NCBI GenBank assembly: GCA_041648595.1
Contig: JBAZOQ010000001.1
Span: 14,002 to 78,001 of the forward strand
Source: Minisyncoccota bacterium
GTDB taxonomy: Bacteria; Patescibacteriota; Minisyncoccia; Phycocordibacterales; UBA9973
Length of the DNA: 64,000 nt
Direction: 5' to 3'
The notes under the pieces are model-generated. The model was not told the origin of the DNA. It saw nothing but the letters and a program-made list of their open reading frames with translations, and did not search any database. This document shows, in pieces, positions 2 to 60,683 of this stretch (positions are counted from its first letter, which is position 1; each line of letters opens with the position of its first letter). The position numbers and the translations under genes are program-made.

Positions 2-3000
2 ACAGATAATGTAGGTGGTTCAGGAATTGGTTCTGTTAAAATTTCTATAAAAGATACAGATGTATCTGTCGCCAAATGGTATAGTGGGACATCTTTTACA
101 GATGTTACAGAAACATATATTACTACTACAGGTACAAATACTTGGAGTTTTAATTCTTCAACAGTACCATTAGTGATAGATCATACTTATTTAGTTCATA
201 TCAAATCTATAGATAGTGCATTAAATGAAGAGAGCCCTGTTCAAGCTCTTTCATTTAAATTTGTAAATTCTCCTCCAGTAGTTTCTAATGTGACAGCTTC
301 TATGGCTTTAAGTGGAGTAGTGACAGTTGGATATGATGTCACAGATGTTGAATCAACGCAGACTACAAATTCTTTATTTTATACAATTGGAGCTACGCTT
401 AATGGAACAATAACAAGTGGAGCAACATCACTTACAGTTTCTGATGCGACACTTTTTGGAGCTTCTGGAACTATTTTGATAGATGATGAGATGATATCTT
501 ATGCAAGTAAGTCGGGAAATATTTTACAGACTCTTACAAGAGGAGCAAATAGTACTACAGCATTTGCACATACTACAGGAGCTTTAATTTATTTAAATGC
601 AGCTTCTGCTACAGGTACTGGTATTGGATTGTCTAATAAAGGAACTGGAAAAGTAATAACTTGGACAGCTAGAACAGATGCAGATGGATATGAAAATGCA
701 ACTGAAACAATTAAGGTTGTTGCGAATGATGGATCTGCTGGATCTATGATAGGGTCACTCGCTTCTTCTGCATTTATTTTTGATGCAAAGAAACCTACTG
801 CGGTAGTCACATTTGATGCTGGAAGTGCAGGTGTGGTAGATAGTGCAACTATTACCATCCCAATGCCAACAGATATTTCAGCGGTAGAATATTTAATTAC
901 TGATGGTGCTTCAGAGGCAGATGGAACGACGAGTGGATGGACAAGTATTACGACTAGCACGACTATACCTTGGACATTTGATTCTGGTATTGAAATAAAG
1001 AATTTAAAATATCAATATAGAGATGCTTATGGAAACACGACAACAGAAACTATAACATCTACTTTGTCTCCAATTCTTGCAAGTTCATTTTTAGTGCAAG
1101 ATACTTCTAACATAACTATTCCATCTTATGATATGTATATCGGGTGGAAAGCATTAGTAGATACTACAGGTTTCTCTTCTTATAAATTAGAATATGCGAC
1201 ATCTACTAATAATGTGACTTATGGATCTTATTCACCAGTTGGTGATGGAATGTCTAATCCTGTCACAAATTATTATGTTCATAGAAATTTGGATTCTACA
1301 AAGTTTTATAGATATCGTCTTGGAGTAACAGGAACTGATGGAAATACTTCTATTCGTGCAGGATCATTTACTACAGCTAAACCAGATGGAGTTCAAAATT
1401 ATGGTGAAGGAGGAGGTGGAAGTGTGGCTACTGCATCAAAAGTAGAAAATGTTGTTCCAACGCAAAATGCTACAACTAAAGATGTCACTGTTACTTATAG
1501 ATTGACAGATACTTCTTTGGCTCAAAAAGTTAGTGTTTCTTATCAAGCTCGAGTATTTTATAATATAGGAATTACTTTACCATCTAATGCATATTCTGGA
1601 GGAAATCTTACAGTATCTGATGCGTCTAAGTTAAAAGATTCTGGATATATTCAAATAAATAATGAAGTAATACAGTATACAGGTAAGACTGGAAATATTT
1701 TGACTGGTCTTACTCGTGGTACATGGCCTACAGCACCTCGTGCAACAAGACAGAATCTTACATTCTTTGCTGGTACTCCGGTATGGGTGATGGCGACTAC
1801 GACGACACCTACAGCTATCACAAATACTACAATATCTACAGGACAAGATGGATCAATAACATGGTCTACATATGGTGAACCTTCTCTCGCGGGAAGTTCA
1901 TATACTAACGTTGGAATAAGAGTGTTAGTTCACGACAATCAAGATCCTGGAGTTGGTCCTATTTCAAGTCAAAATGACTATTCAGAAAATGGAATATTAA
2001 ATACTTTTGATTTAACTGTACCGACTATTACGTTTGATGCAACAAGTTCTACTGGAGCTGAAAGTGTAACCTCTGTAAACTTTGGATTAACTCTTGCTAG
2101 AGCGTATCCAGTTAATTCTACCGTCAACTATACAGTCACTGGTACAGCTACCGGAGGCGGAGTAGACTATACTCTTGCAAATGGAACTGCAACAATTACT
2201 GCTGGAAGTACAACTACTAATATCACAGCAACAATTGTTAATGATATTATTTATGAATCAAGTGAGACAATAATAGTTACAATTTCAAGTCCAACAAACG
2301 CAATATTGGGAGCTAATACAGTTCATACATATACAATCACAGACAATGACACTGTTTCAACAATTGCATTTAATACAACTTCATCTAACGGCCTAGAAAG
2401 TGTAACGGCAGTAACTATTCCAGTTACTATTTCAGCAGTTTCAGGAGCAGATACAACCGTTGATTATACAGTTACTGGTACAGCCACAGGAAGTGGAGCA
2501 GACTATACATTAGCAAATGGAACTGCAACAATTACAGCAGGAAGTACTACTACAAATATTTCTTTAGTTATTGTAGACGATGCTATTAATGAACTTAATG
2601 AAACAATTATTGTTACATTATCTAATCCAAGTGGTGCAACTCTCGGAACAAATACAGCTCATACTTATACAATCACAGACAACGATACTGCATCAACAAT
2701 TGCATTCACTGCAGCAACATTAAATGGTTTAGAAAGTGTAACAGCAGTAACTATTCCAGTTTCTCTTTCTCTTGCTTCATATCAAGATATTACTGTTAAC
2801 TATGCAGTCACAGGTGGAACAGCCACTGGAAGTGGAACAGACTATACTCTTGCATCAGGGGTAGCAACAATTACTGCAGGACAAACTACAACAAATATTT
2901 CAGTAACGGTTGTAAATGATTCTTTGCAAGAATCTAGCGAAACTATTATTGTAACTTTAGCTACTCCTTCAAATGCAACTTTGGGAACAAATACAGCTCA

Positions 3001-6000
3001 TACATATACAATTACCGATGATGATAGTACTCCAACAATTGCATTTACCACAACCTCAGGAATTGGAGCAGAAAGCGTAACTCCAGTAAGTATTGGAGTA
3101 ACTCTTTCAGCAGTTTCTGGATTAGATACAACTGTTGCCTATACTCTAACAGGTACAGCCACAGGAAGTGGAACAGACTATACATTAGCAAGTGGAACAG
3201 CAACAATTACAGCTGGACAAACCACTACAAGTATTTCTCTGGTTATTATAGACGATATACTTAGTGAAGTTAGCGAAACTGCTATCTTAACATTATCCAG
3301 TTCAACTAATTCAACTCTCGGAGTTAACACAACTTATACCTATACAATTACAGACAACGACACTGATCCTACAGTAGCATTCACGGCAGCTTCTTCAAAT
3401 GGATTAGAAAGTGTAACTCCAGTAAATCTTGAAGTTTCTATAGCAGCAGCTTCTTCTAAAAACATAACAGTTGGTTATGCAGTTACCGGAGGTACTGCAA
3501 CTTCAGGTGTTGACTATATTCTTGCTTCAGGAACAGCAACAATTACTGCAGGACAAACTACAACAAATATTTCACTCACTGTCATAAATGATACTCTTAA
3601 GGAATCAAATGAAACTGTAATTGTAACTTTATCTACTCCTTCAAATGCAACTTTGGGAACAAATACAGCTCATACTTATACCATTACAGATAATGACACT
3701 TTTCCAACATTAAGTTTCAACGCTACAACAAGTCAAAGTAATGAAGACGTTAACACTGTAGATATTCCTGTATCTATTACATCTATATATCCAGAAAATG
3801 TAACTTTCTCTTATGCTGTTACAAGTGGTACAGCTACAGGTGGATCAGTTGATTATTTACTAGAAAATGGAACAGGTACAATTACAGCAGGTCAAACATC
3901 TACAAATATTCATATAACTGTTTTTGATGATGAGATTTCTGAAAATACAGAAACAATCGTAATAACTATTTCAAATCCAACGAATGCTACTCTTGGAGCT
4001 AATACAATTCATGCTTACTCTATCTTAGATAATGAAATAGCTGTTACAGCAGCAAGTGGTAGTAATATTAAATCAACAAGTGCTCGTATTGTTTGGACGA
4101 CAGCTGATTACACTGATAGTACTATAGAATATGGTACAGTAGCTCCTCCTGGTACAGAAGGGTCTTTGCCATATACTTTGTCTAAGTCAAATTCAGAGAA
4201 AGTATTATCTCATAATATTTATTTAGGAAATTTAACTCCTTCTACAACTTATTATTATAAATTAACTTCAGTTAATTTAGCAGAAGAAACAACAATTTAC
4301 GAATCAGAATTTACAACTACTCCTGGACCTATTATTAGTAATGTTACATCAAGTGGTGCTACTGATATAGGAGTTGTTATCACTTGGACTTCAAATATTC
4401 CTACAACATCTTATGTTAGTTATTCTACTGATGTAGACTTAGCAAGTCCTACATTATCTTCTGTTTCAGAAGAATTAGTTACCGAACATACTGTTACTTT
4501 AACAGGATTAAATTCTGATAGCACTTATTATTATTTAGTGTATGGAGTAGATGCAGATACAAATGTAGGTGAAGATGCAAATGGTGGCAGTTATTATAAT
4601 TTTGCAACAGGGGCAGATCAAACAGCTCCCGTGATTACAGGAGAGATTACTACACCTATCATTACTGCGACTCAAGCTGCTATTTTATGGACAACTAATG
4701 AAGTTGCAAATGGTAAGGTTATGTATGGAACAAGTGCTGATACTTATGATGATGAAACAGATTTGATATCAACACCATTATTAAATCACATAGCGATCAT
4801 TAGTGATTTAACAGCTACGACAAAATATTATTATGTAGTTGTGTCAGCTGATGCAAACGGTAATACCGTAACATCTGATGAAAAAGAATTAACAACAGCT
4901 GAAGTTGAGCAAGTAATTGTAAGTAGCGGTGGAGGTGGTGGAGGTGGAATTATTGGTGTTGCTCAAGAAATTTATAATCTTTTGCTTGCTGAGAATCAAA
5001 AATATATAGCTAAATTTGGTAGTGATACTAATATCCCGGTTATTACAAATATTAAAGTTGATAGTATTACTGCTTTTGGTGCAATTATTTCGTATGAAAC
5101 AAGTGAAGATACAATATCATTTATTGAATATGGTAAAGATACAGATTACGGTTTTATAGCAGCAGATAAAAATTGGTCAAAAAATCATATAATAAAGGTG
5201 AAAGGATTAAATTTAGGTACAGAATATGATTTTAAAATTAGTGCAATGGATAGAACAAATGATTTTGGTTTTTCTGATAATCAGACCTTCACCACTAAAT
5301 TCTTAAGTGAAGATCTTGCTGAATTAAAAAAGATAGAAAACATAGAACAATTCCAAGCAGAAATAGAAGCAACGATAGAATCAATACTTCCATCTCTTGT
5401 TCCACCATTTATTGATAAACCAGTCGTATCTGATATTACAGAGAGTAGTGCAACAGTAACATTCCGTACAAACATTAAATCTTACCCAGTATTAAGTTAT
5501 ACAACTGATGCTAATTATGATAAAACAAAGACTAATCCATATGATGGAGAAATGTCAGATACTTCAGAAAAAAGTGTTTCTCATACAATGTCTCTTATTG
5601 GATTAAAATCTAATACAAAATATCACGTAATGGCAAAAGCATATTCCTTACCTCAAGTTATTGGTAAATCGGAAGACTTTACATTTATAACAGCTGCTTC
5701 AAAGATTCAGGGATCTATTGTTGATGTTAAGAAAGATATGTTTACAGTTATGTGGACTACAGATGAACCTACTTCTTCTATTATTGAATACAAAAATATG
5801 AAAACTGGAAGAATTTCTCGTACTATTGATGATGTTCAAAATAATTCTCATTCAGTAAGAATTGAAAATCTTTCTCCTGGAACTTCTTATCAGGTTAATA
5901 TTTCAGGTATTAACCAAAAAGGTAATACAGTAGAAAGTGGTTCTTCGTTAAATGTTAAGACATCTACCGACAATACTGCACCAGAAATTTTTAATTTGAA

Positions 6001-6355
6001 AGTAAATAGTACTCTTCTTTCTGGACGAACAGATAAAGTTCAAACAATAATTTCTTGGCAGACTGATGAACCTTCGACTTCTTCTGTTTATTATGAAGAA
6101 GGTTCTGGGTCTTTAGAAAAAGCACTTTCGAACAAACAAGAGGAAGTAGAATTTACAAAAAATCACGTTGTTATATTGGCTTCTCTTAAACCAGGAACTG
6201 TTTATAGATTTACAGTAGAATCGATGGATGATGCAAACAATGTATCTAAACCACCAATTCGTACAATAATTACTCCTAAAAAGATAGAATCAATCGTTGA
6301 TGTTATATTTAAAAACTTTAATGAAACATTTAATTTTATAAATAATGTTAGATAG
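2..6355 (+). CDS. Very large secreted or cell-surface repeat protein (5' partial; open from window start). N-terminal region has duplicated SGNIL.TLTRG modules. Six tandem Calx-beta-like repeats of about 110 aa ending in ..HTYTITDNDT. A poly-Gly linker is followed by multiple FN3 / purple-acid-phosphatase-N-like repeats (..TSYVSYSTD..TYYY..).
   Basis: Frame is open from nt 2 with no stop before 173 (the track start is a GTG at 173). Six roughly 330-bp DNA-level tandem repeats at 2021-4035 translate to Calx-beta-like units. Downstream beta-sandwich repeats have the W..TD and YYY motifs typical of FN3/PKD-like domains. Stop at 6355. Confidence 0.8.
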   Translation, partial: TDNVGGSGIGSVKISIKDTDVSVAKWYSGTSFTDVTETYITTTGTNTWSFNSSTVPLVIDHTYLVHIKSIDSALNEESPVQALSFKFVNSPPVVSNVTASMALSGVVTVGYDVTDVESTQTTNSLFYTIGATLNGTITSGATSLTVSDATLFGASGTILIDDEMISYASKSGNILQTLTRGANSTTAFAHTTGALIYLNAASATGTGIGLSNKGTGKVITWTARTDADGYENATETIKVVANDGSAGSMIGSLASSAFIFDAKKPTAVVTFDAGSAGVVDSATITIPMPTDISAVEYLITDGASEADGTTSGWTSITTSTTIPWTFDSGIEIKNLKYQYRDAYGNTTTETITSTLSPILASSFLVQDTSNITIPSYDMYIGWKALVDTTGFSSYKLEYATSTNNVTYGSYSPVGDGMSNPVTNYYVHRNLDSTKFYRYRLGVTGTDGNTSIRAGSFTTAKPDGVQNYGEGGGGSVATASKVENVVPTQNATTKDVTVTYRLTDTSLAQKVSVSYQARVFYNIGITLPSNAYSGGNLTVSDASKLKDSGYIQINNEVIQYTGKTGNILTGLTRGTWPTAPRATRQNLTFFAGTPVWVMATTTTPTAITNTTISTGQDGSITWSTYGEPSLAGSSYTNVGIRVLVHDNQDPGVGPISSQNDYSENGILNTFDLTVPTITFDATSSTGAESVTSVNFGLTLARAYPVNSTVNYTVTGTATGGGVDYTLANGTATITAGSTTTNITATIVNDIIYESSETIIVTISSPTNAILGANTVHTYTITDNDTVSTIAFNTTSSNGLESVTAVTIPVTISAVSGADTTVDYTVTGTATGSGADYTLANGTATITAGSTTTNISLVIVDDAINELNETIIVTLSNPSGATLGTNTAHTYTITDNDTASTIAFTAATLNGLESVTAVTIPVSLSLASYQDITVNYAVTGGTATGSGTDYTLASGVATITAGQTTTNISVTVVNDSLQESSETIIVTLATPSNATLGTNTAHTYTITDDDSTPTIAFTTTSGIGAESVTPVSIGVTLSAVSGLDTTVAYTLTGTATGSGTDYTLASGTATITAGQTTTSISLVIIDDILSEVSETAILTLSSSTNSTLGVNTTYTYTITDNDTDPTVAFTAASSNGLESVTPVNLEVSIAAASSKNITVGYAVTGGTATSGVDYILASGTATITAGQTTTNISLTVINDTLKESNETVIVTLSTPSNATLGTNTAHTYTITDNDTFPTLSFNATTSQSNEDVNTVDIPVSITSIYPENVTFSYAVTSGTATGGSVDYLLENGTGTITAGQTSTNIHITVFDDEISENTETIVITISNPTNATLGANTIHAYSILDNEIAVTAASGSNIKSTSARIVWTTADYTDSTIEYGTVAPPGTEGSLPYTLSKSNSEKVLSHNIYLGNLTPSTTYYYKLTSVNLAEETTIYESEFTTTPGPIISNVTSSGATDIGVVITWTSNIPTTSYVSYSTDVDLASPTLSSVSEELVTEHTVTLTGLNSDSTYYYLVYGVDADTNVGEDANGGSYYNFATGADQTAPVITGEITTPIITATQAAILWTTNEVANGKVMYGTSADTYDDETDLISTPLLNHIAIISDLTATTKYYYVVVSADANGNTVTSDEKELTTAEVEQVIVSSGGGGGGGIIGVAQEIYNLLLAENQKYIAKFGSDTNIPVITNIKVDSITAFGAIISYETSEDTISFIEYGKDTDYGFIAADKNWSKNHIIKVKGLNLGTEYDFKISAMDRTNDFGFSDNQTFTTKFLSEDLAELKKIENIEQFQAEIEATIESILPSLVPPFIDKPVVSDITESSATVTFRTNIKSYPVLSYTTDANYDKTKTNPYDGEMSDTSEKSVSHTMSLIGLKSNTKYHVMAKAYSLPQVIGKSEDFTFITAASKIQGSIVDVKKDMFTVMWTTDEPTSSIIEYKNMKTGRISRTIDDVQNNSHSVRIENLSPGTSYQVNISGINQKGNTVESGSSLNVKTSTDNTAPEIFNLKVNSTLLSGRTDKVQTIISWQTDEPSTSSVYYEEGSGSLEKALSNKQEEVEFTKNHVVILASLKPGTVYRFTVESMDDANNVSKPPIRTIITPKKIESIVDVIFKNFNETFNFINNVR
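2021..4035 (+). repeat. Six tandem coding repeats of about 330 bp (Calx-beta-like units) inside the giant surface protein gene.
   Basis: Each repeat translates to P(T/S)IAF..(S/T)..G.ESVT.V.I.V.....TTV.Y.VTG.ATG.G.DYTLA.GTATITAG.TTT.I.....DD.....E..I.TLS.P..ATLG.NT.HTYTITDNDT. High nucleotide identity between units is visible by eye. Confidence 0.85.
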
Positions 6356-12221: not shown

Positions 12222-13175
12222 ATGAAAATAGCATTTTTTAGTGTTTTAAAAGAATATCAAGAATTTTTTAATAATTCATTTTCAAAAGATGAAGTTTTTT
12301 GTTTTGAAGAAAAATTAACTAAAGAAAAATTGAACCAAATAAAAGATTTTGAAGTTGTTTCTGTTTTCGTAGATTCGATAGTAGATAAAGATATTATTGA
12401 TAATTTATCTAATTTAAAATTTATTACTACTCGTTCGACTGGATTTGATCATGTTGATTATCAATATGCAAAAAGTAAGGGAATAGCATTTTCTAATGTT
12501 CCAGTGTATGGCTCTAGTACTGTAGCTGAATTTACTTTTGCTTTGATATTAAATCTTTCTAGAAAAATTAGTGAAGCTCTAAGACAATTGAAAGAAGGAG
12601 GTATTTTTGAAGCATTAAAAAACATACAAGGTTTTGATTTAGATGGTAAAATTATTGGAGTCATTGGTACTGGTAAAATAGGTAAGAATGTAATACGTAT
12701 TGCTAAAGCTTTTAATATGAAAGTTTTAGCTTATGATTTATATCCAGATTTAAATTTTGCGAAAGAAAATAATTTTGAATATAAAGATTTTAATGAAGTG
12801 ATATCTGTATCTGATATTATTACGTTGCATACTCCTTCTACAAAAGAAAATTATCATCTTATAAATAAAGAAAGTATTTCAAAAATGAAAAAAGGTGTTT
12901 ATATCATAAACACTGCCCGTGGTGAACTTATAAATACAGAAGACCTGATATTGGGAGTAAAAGAAGGTATTGTGGGTGGTGTAGGATTAGACGTATTGGA
13001 AGGTGAGCGTGATTTTAAAAAAGGAGACAAGATTGCTTTTTTTGAAATACCTAATGTTATAGTCACACCACATATAGCTTTTTATTCGAAAGAAGCGGTA
13101 GATAGAATAGCTGAAACCACGGTTGATAATATAAAAGGTTTTATGTCTGGTAATTTACAGAATTTAGTAAAATAA
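12222..13175 (+). CDS. D-isomer-specific 2-hydroxyacid dehydrogenase family protein (hydroxypyruvate/glycerate or D-lactate dehydrogenase-like).
   Basis: NAD-binding GVIGTGKIGKNVIRIAKAFNMKVLAYD. Catalytic region ARGELINTEDL..GVGLDV...HIAFYSKEA. Confidence 0.8.
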   Translation: MKIAFFSVLKEYQEFFNNSFSKDEVFCFEEKLTKEKLNQIKDFEVVSVFVDSIVDKDIIDNLSNLKFITTRSTGFDHVDYQYAKSKGIAFSNVPVYGSSTVAEFTFALILNLSRKISEALRQLKEGGIFEALKNIQGFDLDGKIIGVIGTGKIGKNVIRIAKAFNMKVLAYDLYPDLNFAKENNFEYKDFNEVISVSDIITLHTPSTKENYHLINKESISKMKKGVYIINTARGELINTEDLILGVKEGIVGGVGLDVLEGERDFKKGDKIAFFEIPNVIVTPHIAFYSKEAVDRIAETTVDNIKGFMSGNLQNLVK

Positions 13176-19036: not shown

Positions 19037-19059
19037 TTGCGGAAGCAAGACTTCCGCAA
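19037..19059 (+). repeat. REP-1 palindrome TTGCGGAAGCAAGACTTCCGCAA, immediately upstream of tRNA-Gly.
   Basis: Same palindrome family as the three copies around and inside the RAYT gene at 36.3-37.1 kb. Confidence 0.75.
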
Positions 19060-19222: not shown

Positions 19223-20575
19223 TTACTTCATTAAGATCATTTTTTTTGTCTGGCTGAAGTTGCCAGATTGAATTTTGTAGATGTACATTCCGCTAGCAAG
19301 CTGAGAAGCATCAAACTTGGTTTCATAACTTCCAGCAGGTTTTTCTTCATTAACTAACTCAACAACTTCTTTGCCGAGCATATCGTAAACTTTTAGAGTT
19401 ACGAAGCCGGATGCAGGAAGTGCATAACTAATTGTTGTAGAAGGATTAAACGGATTTGGATAATTCTGCGACAGATCAAATTTTGTTGGTACAGAAGTTA
19501 CTTCTTCGGTTACATCTGTAACTCCTGAAGGTTTAAGAATAATTGGTTTTCCATTATTCAAAGTTCCATTCACTTCTATTTCTGATAATTTTGCTCCATT
19601 AATAATAACATAAGAACCTTTATCAAGAGCATCATTTGTTGCAAAAGAGATTTTTGTAACGCCATCTTTTGTGTTTACAGAATTCAGTGTTTTGGATAGT
19701 GAACCTTTTTCAATCCAAGCTCCTTTTGGGAGCTTAAGATTAAGATCTCCATTAGTTAAGCTGTCAGAGAAGATTAGTTTAATAGTATTATTTGACAGTT
19801 GTTGTAGTGCGACTTCACCTTTAGTGGTATTAATACCAAGGCCACAACCTCCTTCATAGTAGTATCCATTTTCAACTGGATAGTAACTAATCACATTAAA
19901 ATGTTTCCAAGTTCTATACAAAGCATCTTGGCTAGATACTTGTAGGTCGCCGGTTACATCGTAATAGGCTAAACTTTTTTGATCAATTACCATGATTTTC
20001 CCTGTAGAAAAATCAAGAATTCTAAAAATATCCAGTGTTCCATTATCTCCACCCCACACTCCATCGTTAAATACGGTTATTTTTGCCGAACTTCCAGAAG
20101 CATAGTATTGAGTATGTTCTAGATTACTTTTTGTGAAAATAGTTTGTCCAAAAATAATATATTCTTCCGTTTTATTAGCCATATCTGGATATTGATTAGC
20201 GATTACACTAATTCTTACAGGAGTAAAATAGCTGTGAAAAATTCCATCACTGAATAATCCCCAATGAATAGTGTTGTGATTTGTTGTTGGGTCATAAGAT
20301 AATAATGGGTATGAATAATTATCATTCCAATACCATTCATTCAACGTAACTGTGTTTCGACTTTCAAAGTCAAAACTTAATCTGTCTGAAGAAAATATTG
20401 TCGATTCAACACCGACTATACTATCTCCAGAAAAAATGACAGGTACCTGATAATGACCACCGGCTACCATCAGTGCATTGTTAATTTGCAAATAACTATC
20501 AGATGATGGTAACGTTTGTGCAAAAATGCCCATAGAAAACAAAATGAACAATGAAAGAAAAAGTAACTTTTTCAT
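19223..20575 (-). CDS. Secreted protein with N-terminal signal peptide and C-terminal Por/T9SS-type sorting domain (secretion system C-terminal sorting domain).
   Basis: C-terminus NYPNPFNPSTTISYALPASGFVTLKVYDMLGKEVVELVNEEKPAGSYETKFDASQLASGMYIYKIQSGNFSQTKKMILMK matches the T9SS C-terminal-domain consensus. N-terminus is MKKLLFLSLFILFSMGIFAQ. Confidence 0.7.
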   Translation of the reverse strand: MKKLLFLSLFILFSMGIFAQTLPSSDSYLQINNALMVAGGHYQVPVIFSGDSIVGVESTIFSSDRLSFDFESRNTVTLNEWYWNDNYSYPLLSYDPTTNHNTIHWGLFSDGIFHSYFTPVRISVIANQYPDMANKTEEYIIFGQTIFTKSNLEHTQYYASGSSAKITVFNDGVWGGDNGTLDIFRILDFSTGKIMVIDQKSLAYYDVTGDLQVSSQDALYRTWKHFNVISYYPVENGYYYEGGCGLGINTTKGEVALQQLSNNTIKLIFSDSLTNGDLNLKLPKGAWIEKGSLSKTLNSVNTKDGVTKISFATNDALDKGSYVIINGAKLSEIEVNGTLNNGKPIILKPSGVTDVTEEVTSVPTKFDLSQNYPNPFNPSTTISYALPASGFVTLKVYDMLGKEVVELVNEEKPAGSYETKFDASQLASGMYIYKIQSGNFSQTKKMILMK

Positions 20576-36220: not shown

Positions 36221-36325
36221 TTTTTATCTCAGTTTTTAAAAAATTAAAAAATATTTTTACAAATTTTTATATCTAATATACATGATACTCTTTTTACTTT
36301 TTAAAATCTAAAAGTTATCCACAAT

Positions 36326-36347
36326 TTGCGGAAGCAAGGCTTCCGCA
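36326..36347 (+). repeat. REP-1 palindrome TTGCGGAAGCAAGGCTTCCGCA, immediately upstream of the RAYT gene.
   Basis: Perfect 9-bp arms GCGGAAGC/GCTTCCGC around CAAGG. Confidence 0.75.
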
Positions 36348-36361
36348 GTACTATAGTTAGT

Positions 36362-37063
36362 ATGGCGTATAGAAAAGCATCTTTTGTAGAAGGAGAATTT
36401 TATCATATTTATAATAGAGGAAATAGTAAACAAAAAATATTTTTAGATAATCATGATTATGATCGTTTTATAAAATTATTATATCTTTGTAATTCAGAAT
36501 ATAGTATTGATTTTCGTGAAGATATAGTAAGACAGGGAATTAATGCTTGGGATTTTGATCGTGGTGAATCTATAGTTTCAATAGGTGCATGGGTATTAAT
36601 GCCAAATCATTTTCATTTATATTTAAATATAAATCCGCGGAAGCAAGGCTTCCGCAAAGTTCGTATTAATGAAATTACAGAATTTATGCACAAACTTTTG
36701 ACATCTTATTCGAAGTATTTTAATACAAAATATAAACGTACAGGAGGATTATTTGAAGGTAAATTTAAATCAGTTCATATAGAGGATGATAATCAAGCAA
36801 AATATCTTTTTTCTTATATTCATTTGAATCCAGTCAAACTTATAGATAGTAAATGGAAAGAAAATGGAATAAAAAATAAAAAACAAACAAAAGATTTTTT
36901 GAATAAATATATATGGTCAAGTTATTTAGATTATAAAGGAATTACTCGTTCCCCAAATAAAATTTTAAATAAAAAGGCATTTCCAGAATACTTTCGTAAT
37001 ATGAAAGATTTTGATTTTGAAATAGGGGAGTGGCTTAATTTTTCGGATTCTGACTTAAATTAA
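36362..37063 (+). CDS. IS200/IS605-family HUH Y1 transposase, REP-associated tyrosine transposase (RAYT)-like. It contains an in-frame REP-1 copy (PRKQGFRK).
   Basis: N-terminal FVEGEFYHIYNRGN, HUH motif MPNHFHLYL, catalytic Tyr region KYLFSYIHLNPVK. Flanked on both sides by REP-1 palindromes. ATG 36362 is preferred over the track's TTG start at 36326, which lies inside the REP. Confidence 0.75.
   Translation: MAYRKASFVEGEFYHIYNRGNSKQKIFLDNHDYDRFIKLLYLCNSEYSIDFREDIVRQGINAWDFDRGESIVSIGAWVLMPNHFHLYLNINPRKQGFRKVRINEITEFMHKLLTSYSKYFNTKYKRTGGLFEGKFKSVHIEDDNQAKYLFSYIHLNPVKLIDSKWKENGIKNKKQTKDFLNKYIWSSYLDYKGITRSPNKILNKKAFPEYFRNMKDFDFEIGEWLNFSDSDLN
36635..36657 (+). repeat. REP-1 palindrome CCGCGGAAGCAAGGCTTCCGCAA inserted in frame within the RAYT gene.
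   Basis: Translated as NPRKQGFRKV directly after the HUH motif. Confidence 0.7.
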
Positions 37064-37096
37064 AATCCAAAAGACCGTCTTTTGGGTAAAAAAAAA

Positions 37097-37119
37097 TTGC
37101 GGAAGCCAGGCTTCCGCAA
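37097..37119 (+). repeat. REP-1 palindrome TTGCGGAAGCCAGGCTTCCGCAA, immediately downstream of the RAYT gene.
   Basis: Read directly. Confidence 0.75.
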
Positions 37120-37444
37120 AATTTAACTTTTGTTGAAATAGAAATACACGTAGTAGAGTGCCAAAAATATGGCGAACAACAAAAAAGAAACTCCGGTACC
37201 TACCCACTGTAGGTTCCAGGCAAATATTATTCCTAAAAAGAACAGGAATAACTCAACAAAAATAAGGAGAATTGTTATCTCCTCTTTGAGGAGAATGTCT
37301 ATCTTCTCTTTTAATGTTTTCATTTTTTCTCCATTTTAATTTTTAATTCCATCAATAGTTTAACACAAAATTGACATAAAAGTCAATGTTTTTCAGTTTC
37401 GAGTTATCCACAGGTAGGGCTTGGCTTCTTTTTTGCTTGTGGTT

Positions 37445-49977: not shown

Positions 49978-49988
49978 AATCCACAGAG

Positions 49989-50030
49989 GCGTTGCCTCTG
50001 TGGATTATGGATATTTTTATTTAAAAACAT
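49989..50030 (+). terminator. Terminator-like perfect 12-bp hairpin ATCCACAGAGGC-gtt-GCCTCTGTGGAT followed by an A/T-rich tract after obg.
   Basis: Read directly. May also terminate a convergent minus-strand small ORF. Confidence 0.6.
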
Positions 50031-51010: not shown

Positions 51011-52546
51011 ATGGAGAAAAAATATTATCCTACAATTGGATTAGAAATTCATGCAGAACTTAAAACAAATACAAAAATGTTTTGTAGTTGTAAGAATAAT
51101 CCTGATGAAGAAAAACCAAACATAAACATTTGTCCAGTCTGTATGGCTCATCCTGGTACTTTGCCTGTAATAAATAAAAAGGCTATAGAAAATGTTATAA
51201 AAGTTGGTTTAGCTATTGGTGGAGATATTGCAGATTTTACTGAGTTTGATCGTAAAAATTATTTTTACCCAGATATTCCAAAAGGGTATCAAATTTCTCA
51301 ATATAAATATCCAATAATTTCTGGAGGACATCTTGCAGATTTTGATGTGACGCGTGTGCATCTAGAAGAAGATACAGCAAATAATAAACATAGAGATGAA
51401 AAATTTACAGACGTTGGACGTCTGTTACAGACGTCCAACGTCTGTAAAGAAGGATATTCTCTTGTTGATTTTAATCGCGCAGGCGTGCCTTTAATGGAGC
51501 TTGTCACGGAACCACATACTTTTAAAACTGATACTGATGCAGCAAAAGCAGCATCTTTATTTGCGAAAGAACTTCAGCTTATACTTTGGTATTTAGGTGT
51601 TTCTGAAGCAAATATGGAAAAAGGTGAAATGCGAGTAGAAGCGAATATTTCTGTTTCTGATAACATAAAAGCTTTTGAGCTTAATCAGCCAGTCGGATTG
51701 TCAGGAAGAATGGAAGCCATTGCTTCTTTAGGTACAAAGGTAGAAGTAAAAAATTTAAATTCATTTAAAAGTGTCGAGAAAGCTATCAAATTTGAATTAG
51801 ACAGAATGATTGCTCTTTATGAAGAAGGAAAAGCAGATGAAATAGTGCAAGAGACTAGAGGTTGGGATGAGAGTAAACAGAAAACATTCTCACAAAGAAA
51901 AAAGGAATCTAGTCATGATTATAGATATTTTCCAGAACCAGATTTACCAAAAATGAAATTGCATGAAGTTTTTAATTTAAAAGCAATGGAAAAAGTATTA
52001 CCAGAATTACCTCAAGCAAAAAGACTAAGATATAAAAATGATTTTGGAGTAAAAAAGGAAGATATTGAAAGTTATATTAATGATAAAGAATTAGGAGGAT
52101 GGTTTGAAGAAATAGCAAAATCATTAAATGATTCTGAAAAAATAAAAATTGCTTCAAATTATATTACCTCTGATTATTTGGGTTTAAAGAAAGCCAACTT
52201 GGAGGCAAGGCCTCCAAGTGCTGCAAATTTTGCTGAATTAATAAACTTAGTTACTGAAAGTAAAATTTCTTCTCGTTCAGCAAAAGACATTTTAGCGATG
52301 ATTGTATTGAAAGATGAATCTTCACTCAAAATTGCAACAGAAAAAGGTTTACTTCAAAAAAATGATGAGGGAGAAATAAGAAATTTAGTTCAAAAGATAA
52401 TTTCTGAAAATCCTGAAGTAGTGGCTATTTATAAAGGTGGAAAAGAAAATGCAATTATGTCTCTTGTTGGAAAAATTATAAAAGAAAGTAATGGCAGTGC
52501 CAATCCACAAATAGTTATCAAAATGTTGAAAGAAATGTTAAAATAA
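51011..52546 (+). CDS. gatB: Asp-tRNA(Asn)/Glu-tRNA(Gln) amidotransferase subunit B, with two in-frame palindromic insertions.
   Basis: N-terminus YYPTIGLEIHAELKTNTKMFCSC..NINICPVCMAHPGTLP and C-terminal YqeY-like domain. No gatA or gatC in the window. Confidence 0.85.
   Translation: MEKKYYPTIGLEIHAELKTNTKMFCSCKNNPDEEKPNINICPVCMAHPGTLPVINKKAIENVIKVGLAIGGDIADFTEFDRKNYFYPDIPKGYQISQYKYPIISGGHLADFDVTRVHLEEDTANNKHRDEKFTDVGRLLQTSNVCKEGYSLVDFNRAGVPLMELVTEPHTFKTDTDAAKAASLFAKELQLILWYLGVSEANMEKGEMRVEANISVSDNIKAFELNQPVGLSGRMEAIASLGTKVEVKNLNSFKSVEKAIKFELDRMIALYEEGKADEIVQETRGWDESKQKTFSQRKKESSHDYRYFPEPDLPKMKLHEVFNLKAMEKVLPELPQAKRLRYKNDFGVKKEDIESYINDKELGGWFEEIAKSLNDSEKIKIASNYITSDYLGLKKANLEARPPSAANFAELINLVTESKISSRSAKDILAMIVLKDESSLKIATEKGLLQKNDEGEIRNLVQKIISENPEVVAIYKGGKENAIMSLVGKIIKESNGSANPQIVIKMLKEMLK
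51405..51447 (+). repeat. Perfect 43-bp palindrome TTACAGACGTTGGACGTCTGT-t-ACAGACGTCCAACGTCTGTAA (21-bp arms) inside gatB. Translated as FTDVGRLLQTSNVCKEG.
   Basis: Read directly. GC-rich relative to its surroundings. Confidence 0.8.
52198..52218 (+). repeat. REP-1-variant palindrome CTTGGAGGCAAGGCCTCCAAG in frame in gatB (ANLEARPPSAA).
   Basis: Same stem-CAAGG-stem architecture as REP-1, with compensatory stem changes. Confidence 0.6.
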
Positions 52547-54956: not shown

Positions 54957-56762
54957 GTGAAAGAAGAAATACTAAAATTTTTTAATGGGGAAGTAGAAGA
55001 TAGCGAAGAAACACTTTTAAAATATTCGCGTGATGCGAGTATTTTTGAATTACGACCAAAGCTTGTTCTTTTCCCTTTGGACTCAAAAGATGTTCAGAAT
55101 TTAGTGAAATGGGTAAGTGAAAATAAAGATAAATATGCCGATCCTGAAAAAAATAAAGATTATAAAAATCTTTCCATTACTTGCAGATGCGCAGGAACAG
55201 ATATGTCAGGTGGTGCTATAGGTGAATCTTTGATTTTGGATTTCACTCGGCATATGAATAAGTTGATACGACCACCTCGCCCTTTGGGCACTCCTCCTTC
55301 AAAAGGAGGAGAAGATTTTTCTCCCCTCCTTGGTGAGGAGGGGGCTGGGGGTGGTGATTATTCCATCACTGTGCAGCCCGGTATGTTTTATCGAGATTTT
55401 GAAAAAATAACTTTAGAAAAAGGACTTATTTTGCCTTGTTACACTGCATCAAAGAGTTTGAATGCTATGGGTGGAATGTTTGGTAATAATTCGGCTGGAG
55501 AGCGAACTCTTAAATATGGGAAAACAGAAGATTATATTTTAGAAACAAAGATAGTTTTTTCTGATGGTAATGAATATATTATAAAACCATTAACTCAAAA
55601 TGAATTAACTAAAAAAATAATGCAGTCAAATTTTGAGAGTGAAATTTATAAAAATATTTATAATTTAATAAATGAAAATAAAGAAGAAATAAAAAATGCC
55701 AAACCAGCGGTCAGTAAAAATTCTGCAGGATATTATATTTGGAATGTAATTGGAGATTTTTTTGATTTAAACAAACTTTTAGTTGGTTCTCAAGGCACAT
55801 TGGGTATAGCTACCGAAATTACTTTTAAACTTGTTAAAAATCCTAAACATTCTAAACTTGTAGTTATTTTTGTTAATGGATTAGAACCATTGGGTCGTCT
55901 TGTGGATGAAATTTTACAATTTAAACCAGAAACACTTGAGACATATGATGATAAAACTATAAAATTAGCAGTTAGATTTTTTCCAGATTTTCTTAAAAAT
56001 AAAGGTCTTCTTGGTATGATAAAATTTATGTGGAGTTTTTTACCTGAATTGAAAATGATGTTCAATAGTCTTTTTGGGGGTGGTTTCCCAAAATTAATTA
56101 TTCTTGCAGAGTTTGCTGGTGAAGATGAATCTATGATAGACAGGCAATGTATTTCTTTAAAAGAAAAGATTTCCGCCAAAGGCGGACCAGCCTCAGGCTG
56201 GAAAAATATAAATGTTCATATTACAAAGTCAGAGATAGAAGCAAATAAATATTGGGATATTAGAAGAGAAAGTTTTTCTTTACTACGTAAACATGTCAAA
56301 GGTCTTCATACTGCTCCATTTATAGATGATATTATAGTTCGTCCAGAATTTTTGCCAAAATTTATTCCTGAGCTTAATCAAATTTTTTCAAAATATGATT
56401 TGAATTATACAATAGCAGGACATATAGGAGATGGTAATCTTCACGTCATTCCTCTTATGGATTTTAAACATCCTGATACACCTAAAATAATAATAGAACT
56501 TGGAGAGAAAGTGTATGATCTTATTATAAAATATCATGGTTCTATTACAGCAGAACACAATGATGGTATAGTTCGTACTTTATATTTAGAAAAAATGTAC
56601 GGGAAAAAGATGGTTGCAATTTTTGGAGAAATAAAAAAAATATTTGATTTGAAAAATATTTTTAATCCAGGTAAAAAAACATTTTCAGAAGATGGTGGTG
56701 GAACAAAAGAATATATGATTTCACATATTGCACTGGAACATAGCGTAATACATAAAGTTTAA
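54957..56762 (+). CDS. FAD-linked oxidase (PCMH-type FAD-binding domain plus FAD-oxidase C-terminal domain; glycolate oxidase GlcD / D-lactate dehydrogenase-like) with a roughly 30-aa GC-rich insertion.
   Basis: FAD-binding N-terminus and C-terminal GHIGDGNLHV. The insertion is RPPRPLGTPPSKGGEDFSPLLGEEGAGGGD. Confidence 0.7.
   Translation: MKEEILKFFNGEVEDSEETLLKYSRDASIFELRPKLVLFPLDSKDVQNLVKWVSENKDKYADPEKNKDYKNLSITCRCAGTDMSGGAIGESLILDFTRHMNKLIRPPRPLGTPPSKGGEDFSPLLGEEGAGGGDYSITVQPGMFYRDFEKITLEKGLILPCYTASKSLNAMGGMFGNNSAGERTLKYGKTEDYILETKIVFSDGNEYIIKPLTQNELTKKIMQSNFESEIYKNIYNLINENKEEIKNAKPAVSKNSAGYYIWNVIGDFFDLNKLLVGSQGTLGIATEITFKLVKNPKHSKLVVIFVNGLEPLGRLVDEILQFKPETLETYDDKTIKLAVRFFPDFLKNKGLLGMIKFMWSFLPELKMMFNSLFGGGFPKLIILAEFAGEDESMIDRQCISLKEKISAKGGPASGWKNINVHITKSEIEANKYWDIRRESFSLLRKHVKGLHTAPFIDDIIVRPEFLPKFIPELNQIFSKYDLNYTIAGHIGDGNLHVIPLMDFKHPDTPKIIIELGEKVYDLIIKYHGSITAEHNDGIVRTLYLEKMYGKKMVAIFGEIKKIFDLKNIFNPGKKTFSEDGGGTKEYMISHIALEHSVIHKV
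55271..55368 (+). repeat. GC-rich insertion of about 100 bp in the FAD oxidase gene, containing nested palindromes CTCCTCCTT-caa-AAGGAGGAG and CCCCTCC-ttggtga-GGAGGGG.
   Basis: Read directly. More than 60% GC against about 30% in the gene. Confidence 0.65.
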
Positions 56763-60640: not shown

Positions 60641-60656
60641 TCTGATTTATTTGTAC

Positions 60657-60683
60657 AAAAACCGCTTTTTAAGCGGTTTTTGT
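60657..60683 (+). terminator. Rho-independent terminator after the RRM gene (AAAAACCGCTT-ttt-AAGCGGTTTTT).
   Basis: Perfect 11-bp stem including the U tract. Confidence 0.7.

Follow-up and report, generated by a model that had tools for sequence, protein, structure and literature searches.

The gatB gene in the window, the 64-kb stretch of DNA analysed here, carries a perfect palindrome that we read as a REPIN-type element, belonging to a repeat family associated with RAYT genes in CPR/Paceibacteria. It would have been inherited or acquired by recombination, and would be probably neutral to GatB; we put the probability of this interpretation at about 0.85. Its sequence, TTTACAGACGTTGGACGTCTGT-T-ACAGACGTCCAACGTCTGTAAA, consists of two 22-nt arms, 100% complementary, around a centre of 1 nt. 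A previous sequence-only reading had noticed the palindrome and had given its extent as 43 bp (51405-51447), one base short on each side. Each arm can fold into a small hairpin of its own, formed by a 19-nt REP unit with a stem of 7-8 bp (CAGACGT/ACGTCTG) and a loop of 3 nt (TGG/CCA), and the 45 bp as a whole are thus one REP-like unit doubled in inverted orientation. Coordinates of all features are given in Table 1.

Table 1. Position of the gatB palindrome, of its units and of the REP and RAYT features of the window.
Feature	Position	Strand	Remarks
gatB, Asp/Glu-tRNA amidotransferase subunit B	51011..52546	+	511 aa; Pfam
45-bp palindrome, inverted doublet of REP-like hairpin unit (REPIN-type)	51404..51448	.	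in frame, gatB
Left REP unit, ACAGACGT-TGG-ACGTCTGT	51407..51425	+	conserved TTAC tag before unit
Right REP unit, inverted	51427..51445	-	+ strand reads ACAGACGT-CCA-ACGTCTGT
Second REP-like hairpin in gatB, ACTTGGAGGC-AAG-GCCTCCAAGT	52197..52219	.	10-bp stem, z = -3.4; peptide NLEARPPS
RAYT-like Y1 (HUH) transposase gene	36362..37063	+	cognate REP differs from gatB unit
REP GCGGAAGC-AAG-GCTTCCGC	36328..36346	+	5' flank of RAYT gene
REP GCGGAAGC-AAG-GCTTCCGC	36637..36655	+	inside RAYT ORF, in frame (..NPRKQGFRKV..), just 3' of HFH motif
REP GCGGAAGC-CAG-GCTTCCGC	37099..37117	+	3' flank of RAYT gene
Fourth RAYT-cognate REP copy	19039..19057	+	1 mismatch; intergenic, 7 nt upstream of tRNA gene

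A chance origin of a palindrome with 22-nt arms is excluded, as the sequence-only reading had anticipated: when the window was shuffled 30 times with its dinucleotides preserved, the longest perfect hairpin arm was 9-12 nt, and the chance expectation for the 19-mer unit is 0.00 occurrences. Folded as single-stranded DNA, the palindrome reaches -25 kcal/mol (z = -11.4). Its G+C content is about 45%, for roughly 30% in the whole window and 26% in the surrounding 2 kb. The same palindrome is present in a second public record, a contig of 101.6 kb (ENA ERZ27249422 k141_195877) with 100% identity across 5.5 kb, and an identical GatB is encoded by four contigs; these may not all be fully independent assemblies. 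It had also been argued that a palindrome of this length should be unstable, because of cruciform formation and SbcCD cleavage. This was overstated: bacteria tolerate palindromes of about 45 bp, and SbcCD-dependent inviability concerns much longer ones.

Within GatB, the palindrome is an in-frame insertion of 15 codons into a loop of variable length, modelled with low confidence and without regular structure. The gene product is identified by Pfam (GatB_N, 1.7e-96; GatB_Yqey, 5.4e-32) and aligns end to end with the solved GatB structures 3AL0 and 3H0L. Codons 132-146 (F132-K146, peptide FTDVGRLLQTSNVCK) coincide exactly with the palindrome, in the loop that leads from the HLEEDTANNKH strand to the YSLVDFNRAGVPL strand, and in the AlphaFold model residues 124-156 have a pLDDT<50 and no secondary structure. 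Among 120 close orthologues, this loop is 4-5 residues long (mostly DRGDF) in 54 and 7-24 in the rest; of 80 species loci, about 55 lack an insert and have a short segment of 8-9 residues, and the GatB proteins of T. maritima and Aquifex differ in length at the loop as well. The 54 short orthologues bear out the proposal that the segment is inserted rather than conserved GatB sequence. Conservation at the protein level, considered as an explanation of the segment, is ruled out by these short loops and by the sister lineages, which have unrelated hairpin classes or none at the loop. The effect of the insert on GatB is probably neutral.

The loop is occupied repeatedly. Five GatB lineages, that of the window and four others scattered over the tree, share both the palindrome class of the window and its codon offset; other classes are found at other offsets, and some orthologues carry other perfect palindromes. 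Homologous copies at the same codon position come from other assemblies (L208, L209, L112 and L040). Covariation extends to the outermost pair, which is T..A in the window and G..C in L208 and L209, the centres of orthologous copies differ, and the outer end of the L112 copy is degenerate, against 22/22 perfect pairs in the window. That arms stay perfect while copies differ between species could point to selection for the hairpin rather than to recent copying only.

When further copies of the arm were sought, as suggested together with the original observation, it proved to belong to a repeat family that is scattered over CPR contigs and associated with genes for RAYT transposases. The 16-mer of the gatB unit was found at 43 low-GC metagenome loci, of which 30 have the complete unit, as 13 inverted doublets and 30 singles; eight loci have more than one element, with several per contig in, for example, L151, L172, L188, L190 and L156. 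The unit is also found in L213, L215, L085, L126 and others, and the conserved tag of the family is TTAC (GTAA on the other strand). Copies lie between genes and, in several reading frames, within housekeeping genes. In-frame copies are found in topA (L088 and L151, same site), trxB (L126, L141 and L089, same site), atpG (L188), a Mur-ligase-like gene (L158) and gatB (L112), these host genes being recognised from their sequences. The remaining 77 of 120 metagenome matches of the 16-mer lie in high-GC contigs, include no doublets and were taken as chance. Three matches in viral contigs were likewise set aside: two are high-GC chance matches, and the third, in L217 (identical in sequence to L173), resembles a protein motif (..LTDVGRQ..) rather than a REP. 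The 16-mer was absent from 1.3 Mb of gatB loci of other species.

The gatB-type unit flanks RAYT genes in other genomes. L172 and L156 each contain a RAYT homologue with the unit on both flanks. When homologues were picked by protein similarity alone, two of three had the unit, as a doublet just upstream (L213) or on both sides (L215), and the third had a covarying sister unit instead. The genome of the window has a putative sister-class RAYT/REP system of its own (Table 1). The protein matches REP_Tyr_transpos with E=1.9e-12 (47 bits, for a cutoff of 80) and Y1_Tnp with 21.1 bits (cutoff 23); its L172 and L156 homologues score 23.2 and 23.5 bits for Y1_Tnp, just over that cutoff, and E about 1e-5 to 1e-6 for REP_Tyr_transpos. 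These RAYT-like proteins score below the curated NCBIfam cutoff. HFH motifs are seen in the window, L172 and L156 sequences, and relatives, from a clade abundant in CPR, are named RayT or REP-associated tyrosine transposase by JGI and NCBI. The REP of the window RAYT also forms a doublet with perfect 22-nt arms, which lies in frame in the atpG gene of a near-identical contig (99.97% over an 11-kb overlap), some 10 kb outside the window.

Neither a second copy of the gatB class nor a cognate RAYT was found in the 74 kb of this genome formed by the window and the 10 kb beyond it. Therefore, the gatB copy is most likely a resident element, inherited or acquired by recombination, and not a fresh transposition. 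One filled/empty polymorphism illustrates recombination. Two groups of gatB alleles that are 99.5% identical (L201/L204 and L202/L203) have a net difference of +45 nt, owing to a palindrome of related class that is present or absent in the same loop. Their mismatches are clustered within about 40 nt of the insert, with only two in the other ~1400 nt, and no target-site duplication was found in the L201/L202 pair, which is not a clean insertion. This palindrome moved together with flanking gatB sequence, by recombination and not by transposition. For the gatB lineage of the window, no closely related empty allele was found, nor was there a direct repeat or target-site duplication at the junctions of its palindrome (GAAAAA/TTTACAG...CTGTAAA/GAAGGA).

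How such copies might spread can be proposed from known enzymes. TnpA of IS200/IS605 elements such as IS608 is a Y1 HUH enzyme that recognises subterminal DNA hairpins and cleaves beside a short tetranucleotide, which for IS608 is TTAC, the same as the tag of the gatB REP. By analogy with this enzyme and with E. coli TnpA-REP, a RAYT would act on the hairpin as single-stranded DNA, with cleavage and joining beside the conserved TTAC, and single-stranded TTACAGACGTTGGACGTCTGGGA would be the expected substrate for binding and cleavage by a RAYT of the L172/L213 type. Unlike IS608, the gatB element does not encode a transposase, and TTAC is its presumed cleavage site. We know of no RAYT for which transposition of REPINs in vivo has been shown experimentally. 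In gene-dense genomes, only in-frame, stop-free copies in tolerant surface loops would survive, a filter that would create hot spots at the level of loops. A resident copy would then be passed on vertically, and would cross between lineages by homologous recombination in the codons on either side, which are highly conserved.

An unlikely alternative is that an active cognate RAYT, located elsewhere in this genome, has recently inserted the REPIN. The perfection of the window arms, next to the degenerate L112 copy, would fit with it, and so would the abundance of RAYTs of this clade in CPR, given that 74 kb of the genome were examined. However, those 74 kb hold neither cognate RAYT nor second copy, the same class occupies the same codon offset in four other scattered GatB lineages, and the sole polymorphism examined moved by recombination. 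The claim that the palindrome was recently inserted can be kept for the insertion and not for its date: the age of the element is not datable, because no close empty allele was found and the same position is filled in four other lineages. Selection of the hairpin or of the peptide loop for a host function (gatB expression, translation pausing, stability, or a useful surface loop) seems to us quite improbable. It would account for complementarity that stays perfect despite lineage-specific sequences, with covariation of the outermost pair, for the occupation of the same loop in about half of the orthologues, and for the hairpins that recur at a third gatB site with unchanged length. It is difficult to reconcile with presence or absence among alleles 99.5% identical, with sister lineages that have unrelated hairpins or none, with copies of the unit that are intergenic, in several frames and in unrelated genes, and with a peptide located in a low-confidence model region without regular structure. 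An Rfam scan of the whole window returned tRNAs only, with no matching family at the palindrome.

Two further explanations would dispense with a mobile repeat. The palindrome might have originated in place, if replication switched templates and copied a 22-nt stretch by fold-back, without a pre-existing element. A perfect palindrome with a 1-nt centre is a typical product of template switching, and the window has a single copy. This reading is largely refuted by the dispersed units, and we give it very little credence: 19 nt including TTAC are identical in many unrelated CPR loci and in RAYT flanks, each arm already contains the internal hairpin of the family, and orthologous gatB copies share the element yet differ in their centres. 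Palindromes can also come from MDA or assembler errors, as artificial fold-back junctions. An assembly or amplification artefact is very unlikely, with odds that we consider next to nil, since a second record, whose contig differs in length, has the identical sequence, the insert leaves an essential gene exactly in frame, and assemblies of other samples have homologous insertions at this codon.

A resident REPIN in gatB can be compared with known systems. RPE-1 was reportedly described by Ogata and colleagues in 2000 as a selfish palindrome found in frame within many protein-coding genes of Rickettsia; it is about 100-150 bp long and has no known transposase. The gatB element resembles it in being palindromic selfish DNA, in frame in a protein-coding gene of a reduced genome and missing from orthologues, and differs in its length of 45 bp, which does not fit RPE-1, and in being made of RAYT-associated REP units. 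The Rickettsia elements are tolerated because their insertion sites are surface-exposed segments. A MITE was rejected, as there is no flanking direct repeat and the associated enzyme is a Y1, not a DDE, transposase.

With REPINs, the doublets of REPs mobilised with RAYTs (Bertels & Rainey 2011, PMC3116915, PMC3337134; Nunvar 2010), the element shares its two inverted short hairpin repeats with a short spacer, a family that exists as singles and doublets, and RAYT genes with that repeat on their flanks, each RAYT lineage having its own covarying REP class. It differs from them by its location in frame in an essential coding sequence and not in extragenic DNA, by its TTAC/GTAA tag in place of GTAG, by a spacer of only 1 nt, by its CPR host, and by a cognate RAYT not found in 74 kb of this genome. 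REPs and their dimers have also been surveyed inside genes, with RPE-4 and RPE-6 of Rickettsia among them (Di Nocera et al. 2013, PMC3733652). In that survey, dimers lying wholly in ORFs add about 20-30 residues, the hosts are often housekeeping, DNA-metabolism or translation genes, and different REPs are occasionally found at about the same site of orthologous genes. The families described there carry GTAG or CGTC tags and are mainly from Proteobacteria, Opitutus and Rickettsia; the gatB unit has neither tag unpaired but TTAC, its lineage differs, and reoccupation of the same loop is much more marked. The gatB palindrome is, in our reading, an intragenic REPIN comparable to the Rickettsia palindromic elements, a known kind of selfish DNA in a group for which it is not reported in searchable papers: in the library searched, no paper describes REP, RAYT, RPE or palindromic in-frame insertions in CPR/Patescibacteria.

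As in Rickettsia, the genome of this CPR bacterium, although tiny and gene-dense, keeps hairpin repeats in essential genes, which shows how elements of the REP/RAYT type can endure with little room between genes. Alignments of CPR proteins contain hypervariable loops and unusual indels that insertions of this kind explain. The insertions are probably also one cause of broken assemblies, given that many RAYT contigs measure just 1-3 kb. They also give strain-level markers. REPIN movement is not settled even in model organisms, and filled/empty polymorphisms, such as those of the Hainich groundwater alleles, could measure it in uncultivated populations. A bolder scenario, which we hold to be distinctly doubtful, is that RAYT-REPIN systems of CPR have moved wholesale into tolerant loops of gatB, atpG, topA and trxB, that they spread between lineages by homing-like co-conversion, in which cleavage or recombination at the hairpin is repaired from a filled allele acquired from the environment, and that variants with the DnaA-box-like TTATCCACA possibly function in replication. 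If this were true, such loops would be arenas of gene drive at the population level.

A second, REP-1-like palindrome had been reported in gatB at 52198-52218. It is real and one base longer on each side (Table 1), and the likeness is reasonable, as its AAG loop and GGA[AG]GC/GC[TC]TCC core are common with the REP flanking the window RAYT. The length of gatB is unchanged there relative to orthologues, and this place is taken in other species by different hairpins, perfect and with a triloop. A second insertion hot spot of the window's gatB, at 51658-51730 (NIKAFELNQPVGLSGRMEAIAS), adds 22 residues that many orthologues lack; it was not counted as a REP, its hairpin being insignificant (z = -1.6).

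The ORF that hosts the palindrome is clearly gatB: it matches GatB_N (1.7e-96) and GatB_Yqey (5.4e-32), and aligns over its full length with solved GatB structures. The palindrome, at 51404–51448 (TTTACAGACGTTGGACGTCTGT-T-ACAGACGTCCAACGTCTGTAAA), is a perfect inverted repeat with arms of 22 nt around one central base, and corresponds exactly to codons 132–146 (FTDVGRLLQTSNVCK). The sequence-only reading was right about its perfection, but had made it one base too short on each side. Chance does not account for it: across 30 dinucleotide-preserving shuffles, the maximum length of a perfect arm ranged from 9 to 12 nt, versus 22 nt here, the expected count of its 19-nt unit was 0.00, and its single-strand fold reached -25 kcal/mol (z = -11.4). 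Its G+C content is ~45%, versus ~30% for the window, whose genome is a Paceibacterota/Nomurabacteria-like CPR. An assembly artefact, a concern raised earlier, is very unlikely, because the identical sequence is found in a second public record whose contig differs in length, and four contigs encode the identical GatB protein.

Each arm forms its own hairpin, ACAGACGT-TGG-ACGTCTGT, with a stem of 8 bp and a loop of 3 nt, and the loop (TGG versus CCA) is the sole difference between the two arms. Therefore, the palindrome consists of one 19-nt unit present twice, in inverted orientation, with a 1-base joint, which is how a REP doublet (REPIN) is organised.

The site is bounded by the invariant segments HLEEDTANNKH and [YF]SL[IV]DFNRAGVPL. 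Among 120 GatB orthologues (73–86% identity), 54 have no more than 4–5 residues, mostly DRGDF, at the site. The segment is, as had been proposed, an inserted palindromic element and not a conserved part of GatB, and its loop is hypervariable. The remaining orthologues have 7–24 residues of quite dissimilar sequence. At the DNA level, different perfect palindromes were found in the loop of other species (Table), all with a 7–9-bp stem per arm around a conserved GT-NNG-AC centre. In the AlphaFold model, residues 124–156 (pLDDT<50) lack secondary structure and lie between strands 111–123 and 161–166, and length at the loop also differs in T. maritima and Aquifex. The loop is tolerant of length variation.

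Hairpins also occur in a GatB linker of constant length (11 residues). The window's copy shares its AAG loop and core with the resident REP described below; other species have TGCGGAAGT-CCG-ACTTCCGCA or other perfect triloop hairpins. Several REP classes are represented among these linker hairpins, which were seen in 6 of 26 species. Another hot spot of insertion into GatB was noted at window 51661–51726 (residues ~217–239), where a conserved insert of 22 residues (NIKAFELNQPVGLSGRMEAIAS) is shared by the window and ~20 orthologues, whereas most orthologues have DKNK. Folding of this segment in the window gave no significant hairpin (z = -1.6); the equivalent site of locus L080 holds a perfect doublet with arms of 28 nt.

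Table. Coordinates and loci of gatB hairpins, in-ORF elements (genes as recognised from sequence) and the resident RAYT-like/REP system; L-numbers are other loci or contigs compared
Feature	Locus	Position	Strand	Details
gatB ORF, host of palindrome	window	51011–52546	+	511 codons
gatB linker hairpin	window	52197–52219		same site in L012, L016, L020, L026, L074
GatB-loop palindrome	L006			arms 22 nt; tttcccacatgtcagacatgtg
GatB-loop palindrome	L029			arms 22 nt; gcccccaggtcggacctgtggg
GatB-loop palindrome	L053			arms 21 nt
GatB-loop palindrome	L005			arms 18 nt
GatB-loop palindrome	L201			arms 25 nt
GatB-loop single hairpin	L207			closest relative; CCCACAAGT-TGA-ACTTGTGGG
In-ORF element, topA	L088, L151			common site
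In-ORF element, trxB	L126, L141, L089			common site
In-ORF element, atpG	L188
In-ORF element, Mur-ligase-like gene	L158
In-ORF element, infB	L160			5' end of reading frame
In-ORF element, FtsQ-like gene	L151
In-ORF element, gatB	L112			another lineage
RAYT-like gene	window	36362–37063
Resident REP	window	36328 and 37099		GCGGAAGC-AAG-GCTTCCGC; flanking RAYT-like gene; different from gatB unit
Resident REP, third copy	window	36637		in frame within RAYT-like gene
Resident REP, fourth copy	window	19039		intergenic, adjoining tRNA

A search for further copies of the arm, suggested from the sequence alone, uncovered a dispersed, RAYT-associated repeat family in low-GC, CPR-like contigs. When metagenome contigs were scanned for exact copies of ACAGACGTTGGACGTC, at least 120 matches were obtained. 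Among the matches listed, 77 were in high-GC contigs, with no doublet, and look like chance, and 43 were in low-GC, CPR-like contigs, within a recurring element of approximate consensus TTACAGACGTTGGACGTCTGGGA-spacer-TCCCAGACGTCCAACGTCTGTAA. In a strict count requiring the complete hairpin, 30 low-GC loci among the matches listed held 13 inverted doublets and 30 singles, eight of these loci having more than one element. A complete hairpin of the gatB class was not found in the gatB neighbourhoods of 80 other species (1.3 Mb). About 40% of the elements among the matches listed lie inside ORFs of at least 150 codons, recognised by their sequence as housekeeping genes (Table); the infB element may precede the true start codon.

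A tblastn query with the RAYT-like protein of the window found homologues in five of the motif-selected loci, among the matches listed. The RAYT-like genes of L172 and L156 have perfect doublets of the gatB-class unit on either flank (for example ctccagacgttggacgtctgt-AATTT-acagacgtccaacgtctggag). Against selection bias, three relatives of the L172 protein were chosen solely by protein similarity. The gatB-class unit was present at two of the three, as a doublet immediately upstream of the RAYT-like gene in L213 and on both sides of it in L215, and the third (L210) has a covarying sister unit, CAGGTA-TCCGA-TACCTG, on its flanks. The homologues score at cutoff for Pfam Y1_Tnp and below cutoff for NCBIfam REP_Tyr_transpos; more than 2,800 protein clusters are related to them, many carrying the name RayT or REP-associated tyrosine transposase in Patescibacteria (JGI, NCBI). 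A DnaA-box-like 9-mer (TGTGGATAA / TTATCCACA) was also seen at fixed offsets (-16, +19) from 17 of 87 REP cores (expected 2.6%), in L161, L195, L156, L191, L213, L215 and others, and in RAYT gene flanks. It seems to form part of an extended version of the element.

The window has its own RAYT-like/REP system (locus 36305–37120). The in-frame REP copy sits directly after the HFH motif (..HFHLYLNINPRKQGFRKV..); it could have abolished enzyme activity or could be tolerated. Contig L205, 99.97% identical to the window across an 11 kb overlap, carries at 12597–12643, ~10 kb past the window's right end, a perfect in-frame doublet of the resident REP in atpG (ATP synthase gamma): TTTGCGGAAGCCTTGCTTCCGC-AAG-GCGGAAGCAAGGCTTCCGCAAA, with arms of 22 nt and a 3-nt spacer, encoding EFAEALLPQGGSKASAKF. 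Its architecture is the same as that of the gatB palindrome. At the same atpG site, L188 has a remnant of the resident-REP class beside its gatB-class doublet.

A neighbour-joining tree built from the 120 GatB proteins shows a scattered insertion state: it varies between sister taxa, and the window's class (TDVGR) turns up at four separate positions. Among GatB alleles, the filled P0013/P0016 and the empty P0025 share 99.5% identity, with a net DNA difference of 45 nt; three of the four contigs with these alleles come from Hainich groundwater wells. A clean insertion is ruled out by the clustering of mismatches beside the palindrome: 14 within 40 nt downstream and, in one contig, 6 upstream, versus 2 across the remaining ~1400 nt. 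The palindrome of the filled alleles was therefore carried along with adjacent gatB sequence, through homologous recombination or co-conversion. In five lineages, the window's class is found at an identical codon offset, 5 residues past NNKH and 4 ahead of SL, with one or two variations; other classes have different offsets inside the loop. In our reading, each class was inserted once and then spread vertically and by recombination, and different classes entered this one tolerant loop independently.

Mobilisation of the element would be due to a RAYT that acts on the hairpin in single-stranded form, beside the conserved TTAC, the tetranucleotide also used by IS608 TnpA, and only in-frame, stop-free copies in permissive loops would outlast selection. 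Neither a cognate RAYT of the gatB unit nor a second copy was found in the 74 kb of this genome scanned, so that a resident or recombination-acquired element is more likely than a fresh jump. The perfect symmetry of the arms may be due to recency, to hairpin-templated repair or to selection on the element.

The classic in-frame selfish palindromes are those of Rickettsia RPE-1. REPINs and RAYTs are well described (PMC3116915, PMC3337134). Catalogued intragenic REPs and REP dimers encode 20–30 residues in Opitutus, Rickettsia (RPE-4/6), Thauera and others, and in rare cases orthologous genes have different REPs at about the same site (PMC3733652). The gatB element shares its mode of existence with catalogued intragenic REPs and RPEs, but its tag is TTAC, versus GTAG or CGTC in described REPs, from which it also differs in host lineage, compactness and strength of the loop-level hot spot. 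No paper connecting REP/RAYT with CPR bacteria was found in the literature searched; annotation pipelines already give CPR transposases RAYT names. The finding does not represent a new category; it makes intragenic REPIN populations clearly visible in CPR genomes.

Other features were seen. A GC-rich hairpin at window 55291–55311 (CTCCTCCTT-CAA-AAGGAGGAG), in a 601-codon FAD-oxidase gene (peptide ..PLGTPPSKGGED..), may be a further in-frame insertion. Perfect hairpins with 13-bp stems at 49978–50006, directly past obg, and 60655–60683, directly ahead of a tRNA gene, are probably terminators. A secreted-looking protein of 450 residues (19223–20575, minus strand) has a C-terminal sorting domain of type IX secretion (Por_Secre_tail, 4.9e-15), typical of Bacteroidota and unexpected in a CPR genome, and an ORF as long as 2060 codons (173–6355, plus strand) occupies the window's left end. 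In L209, the gatB neighbourhood of the genome encoding P0021, a diversity-generating-retroelement-like pair, bAvd and reverse transcriptase (3390–5412), adjoins a large surface protein.
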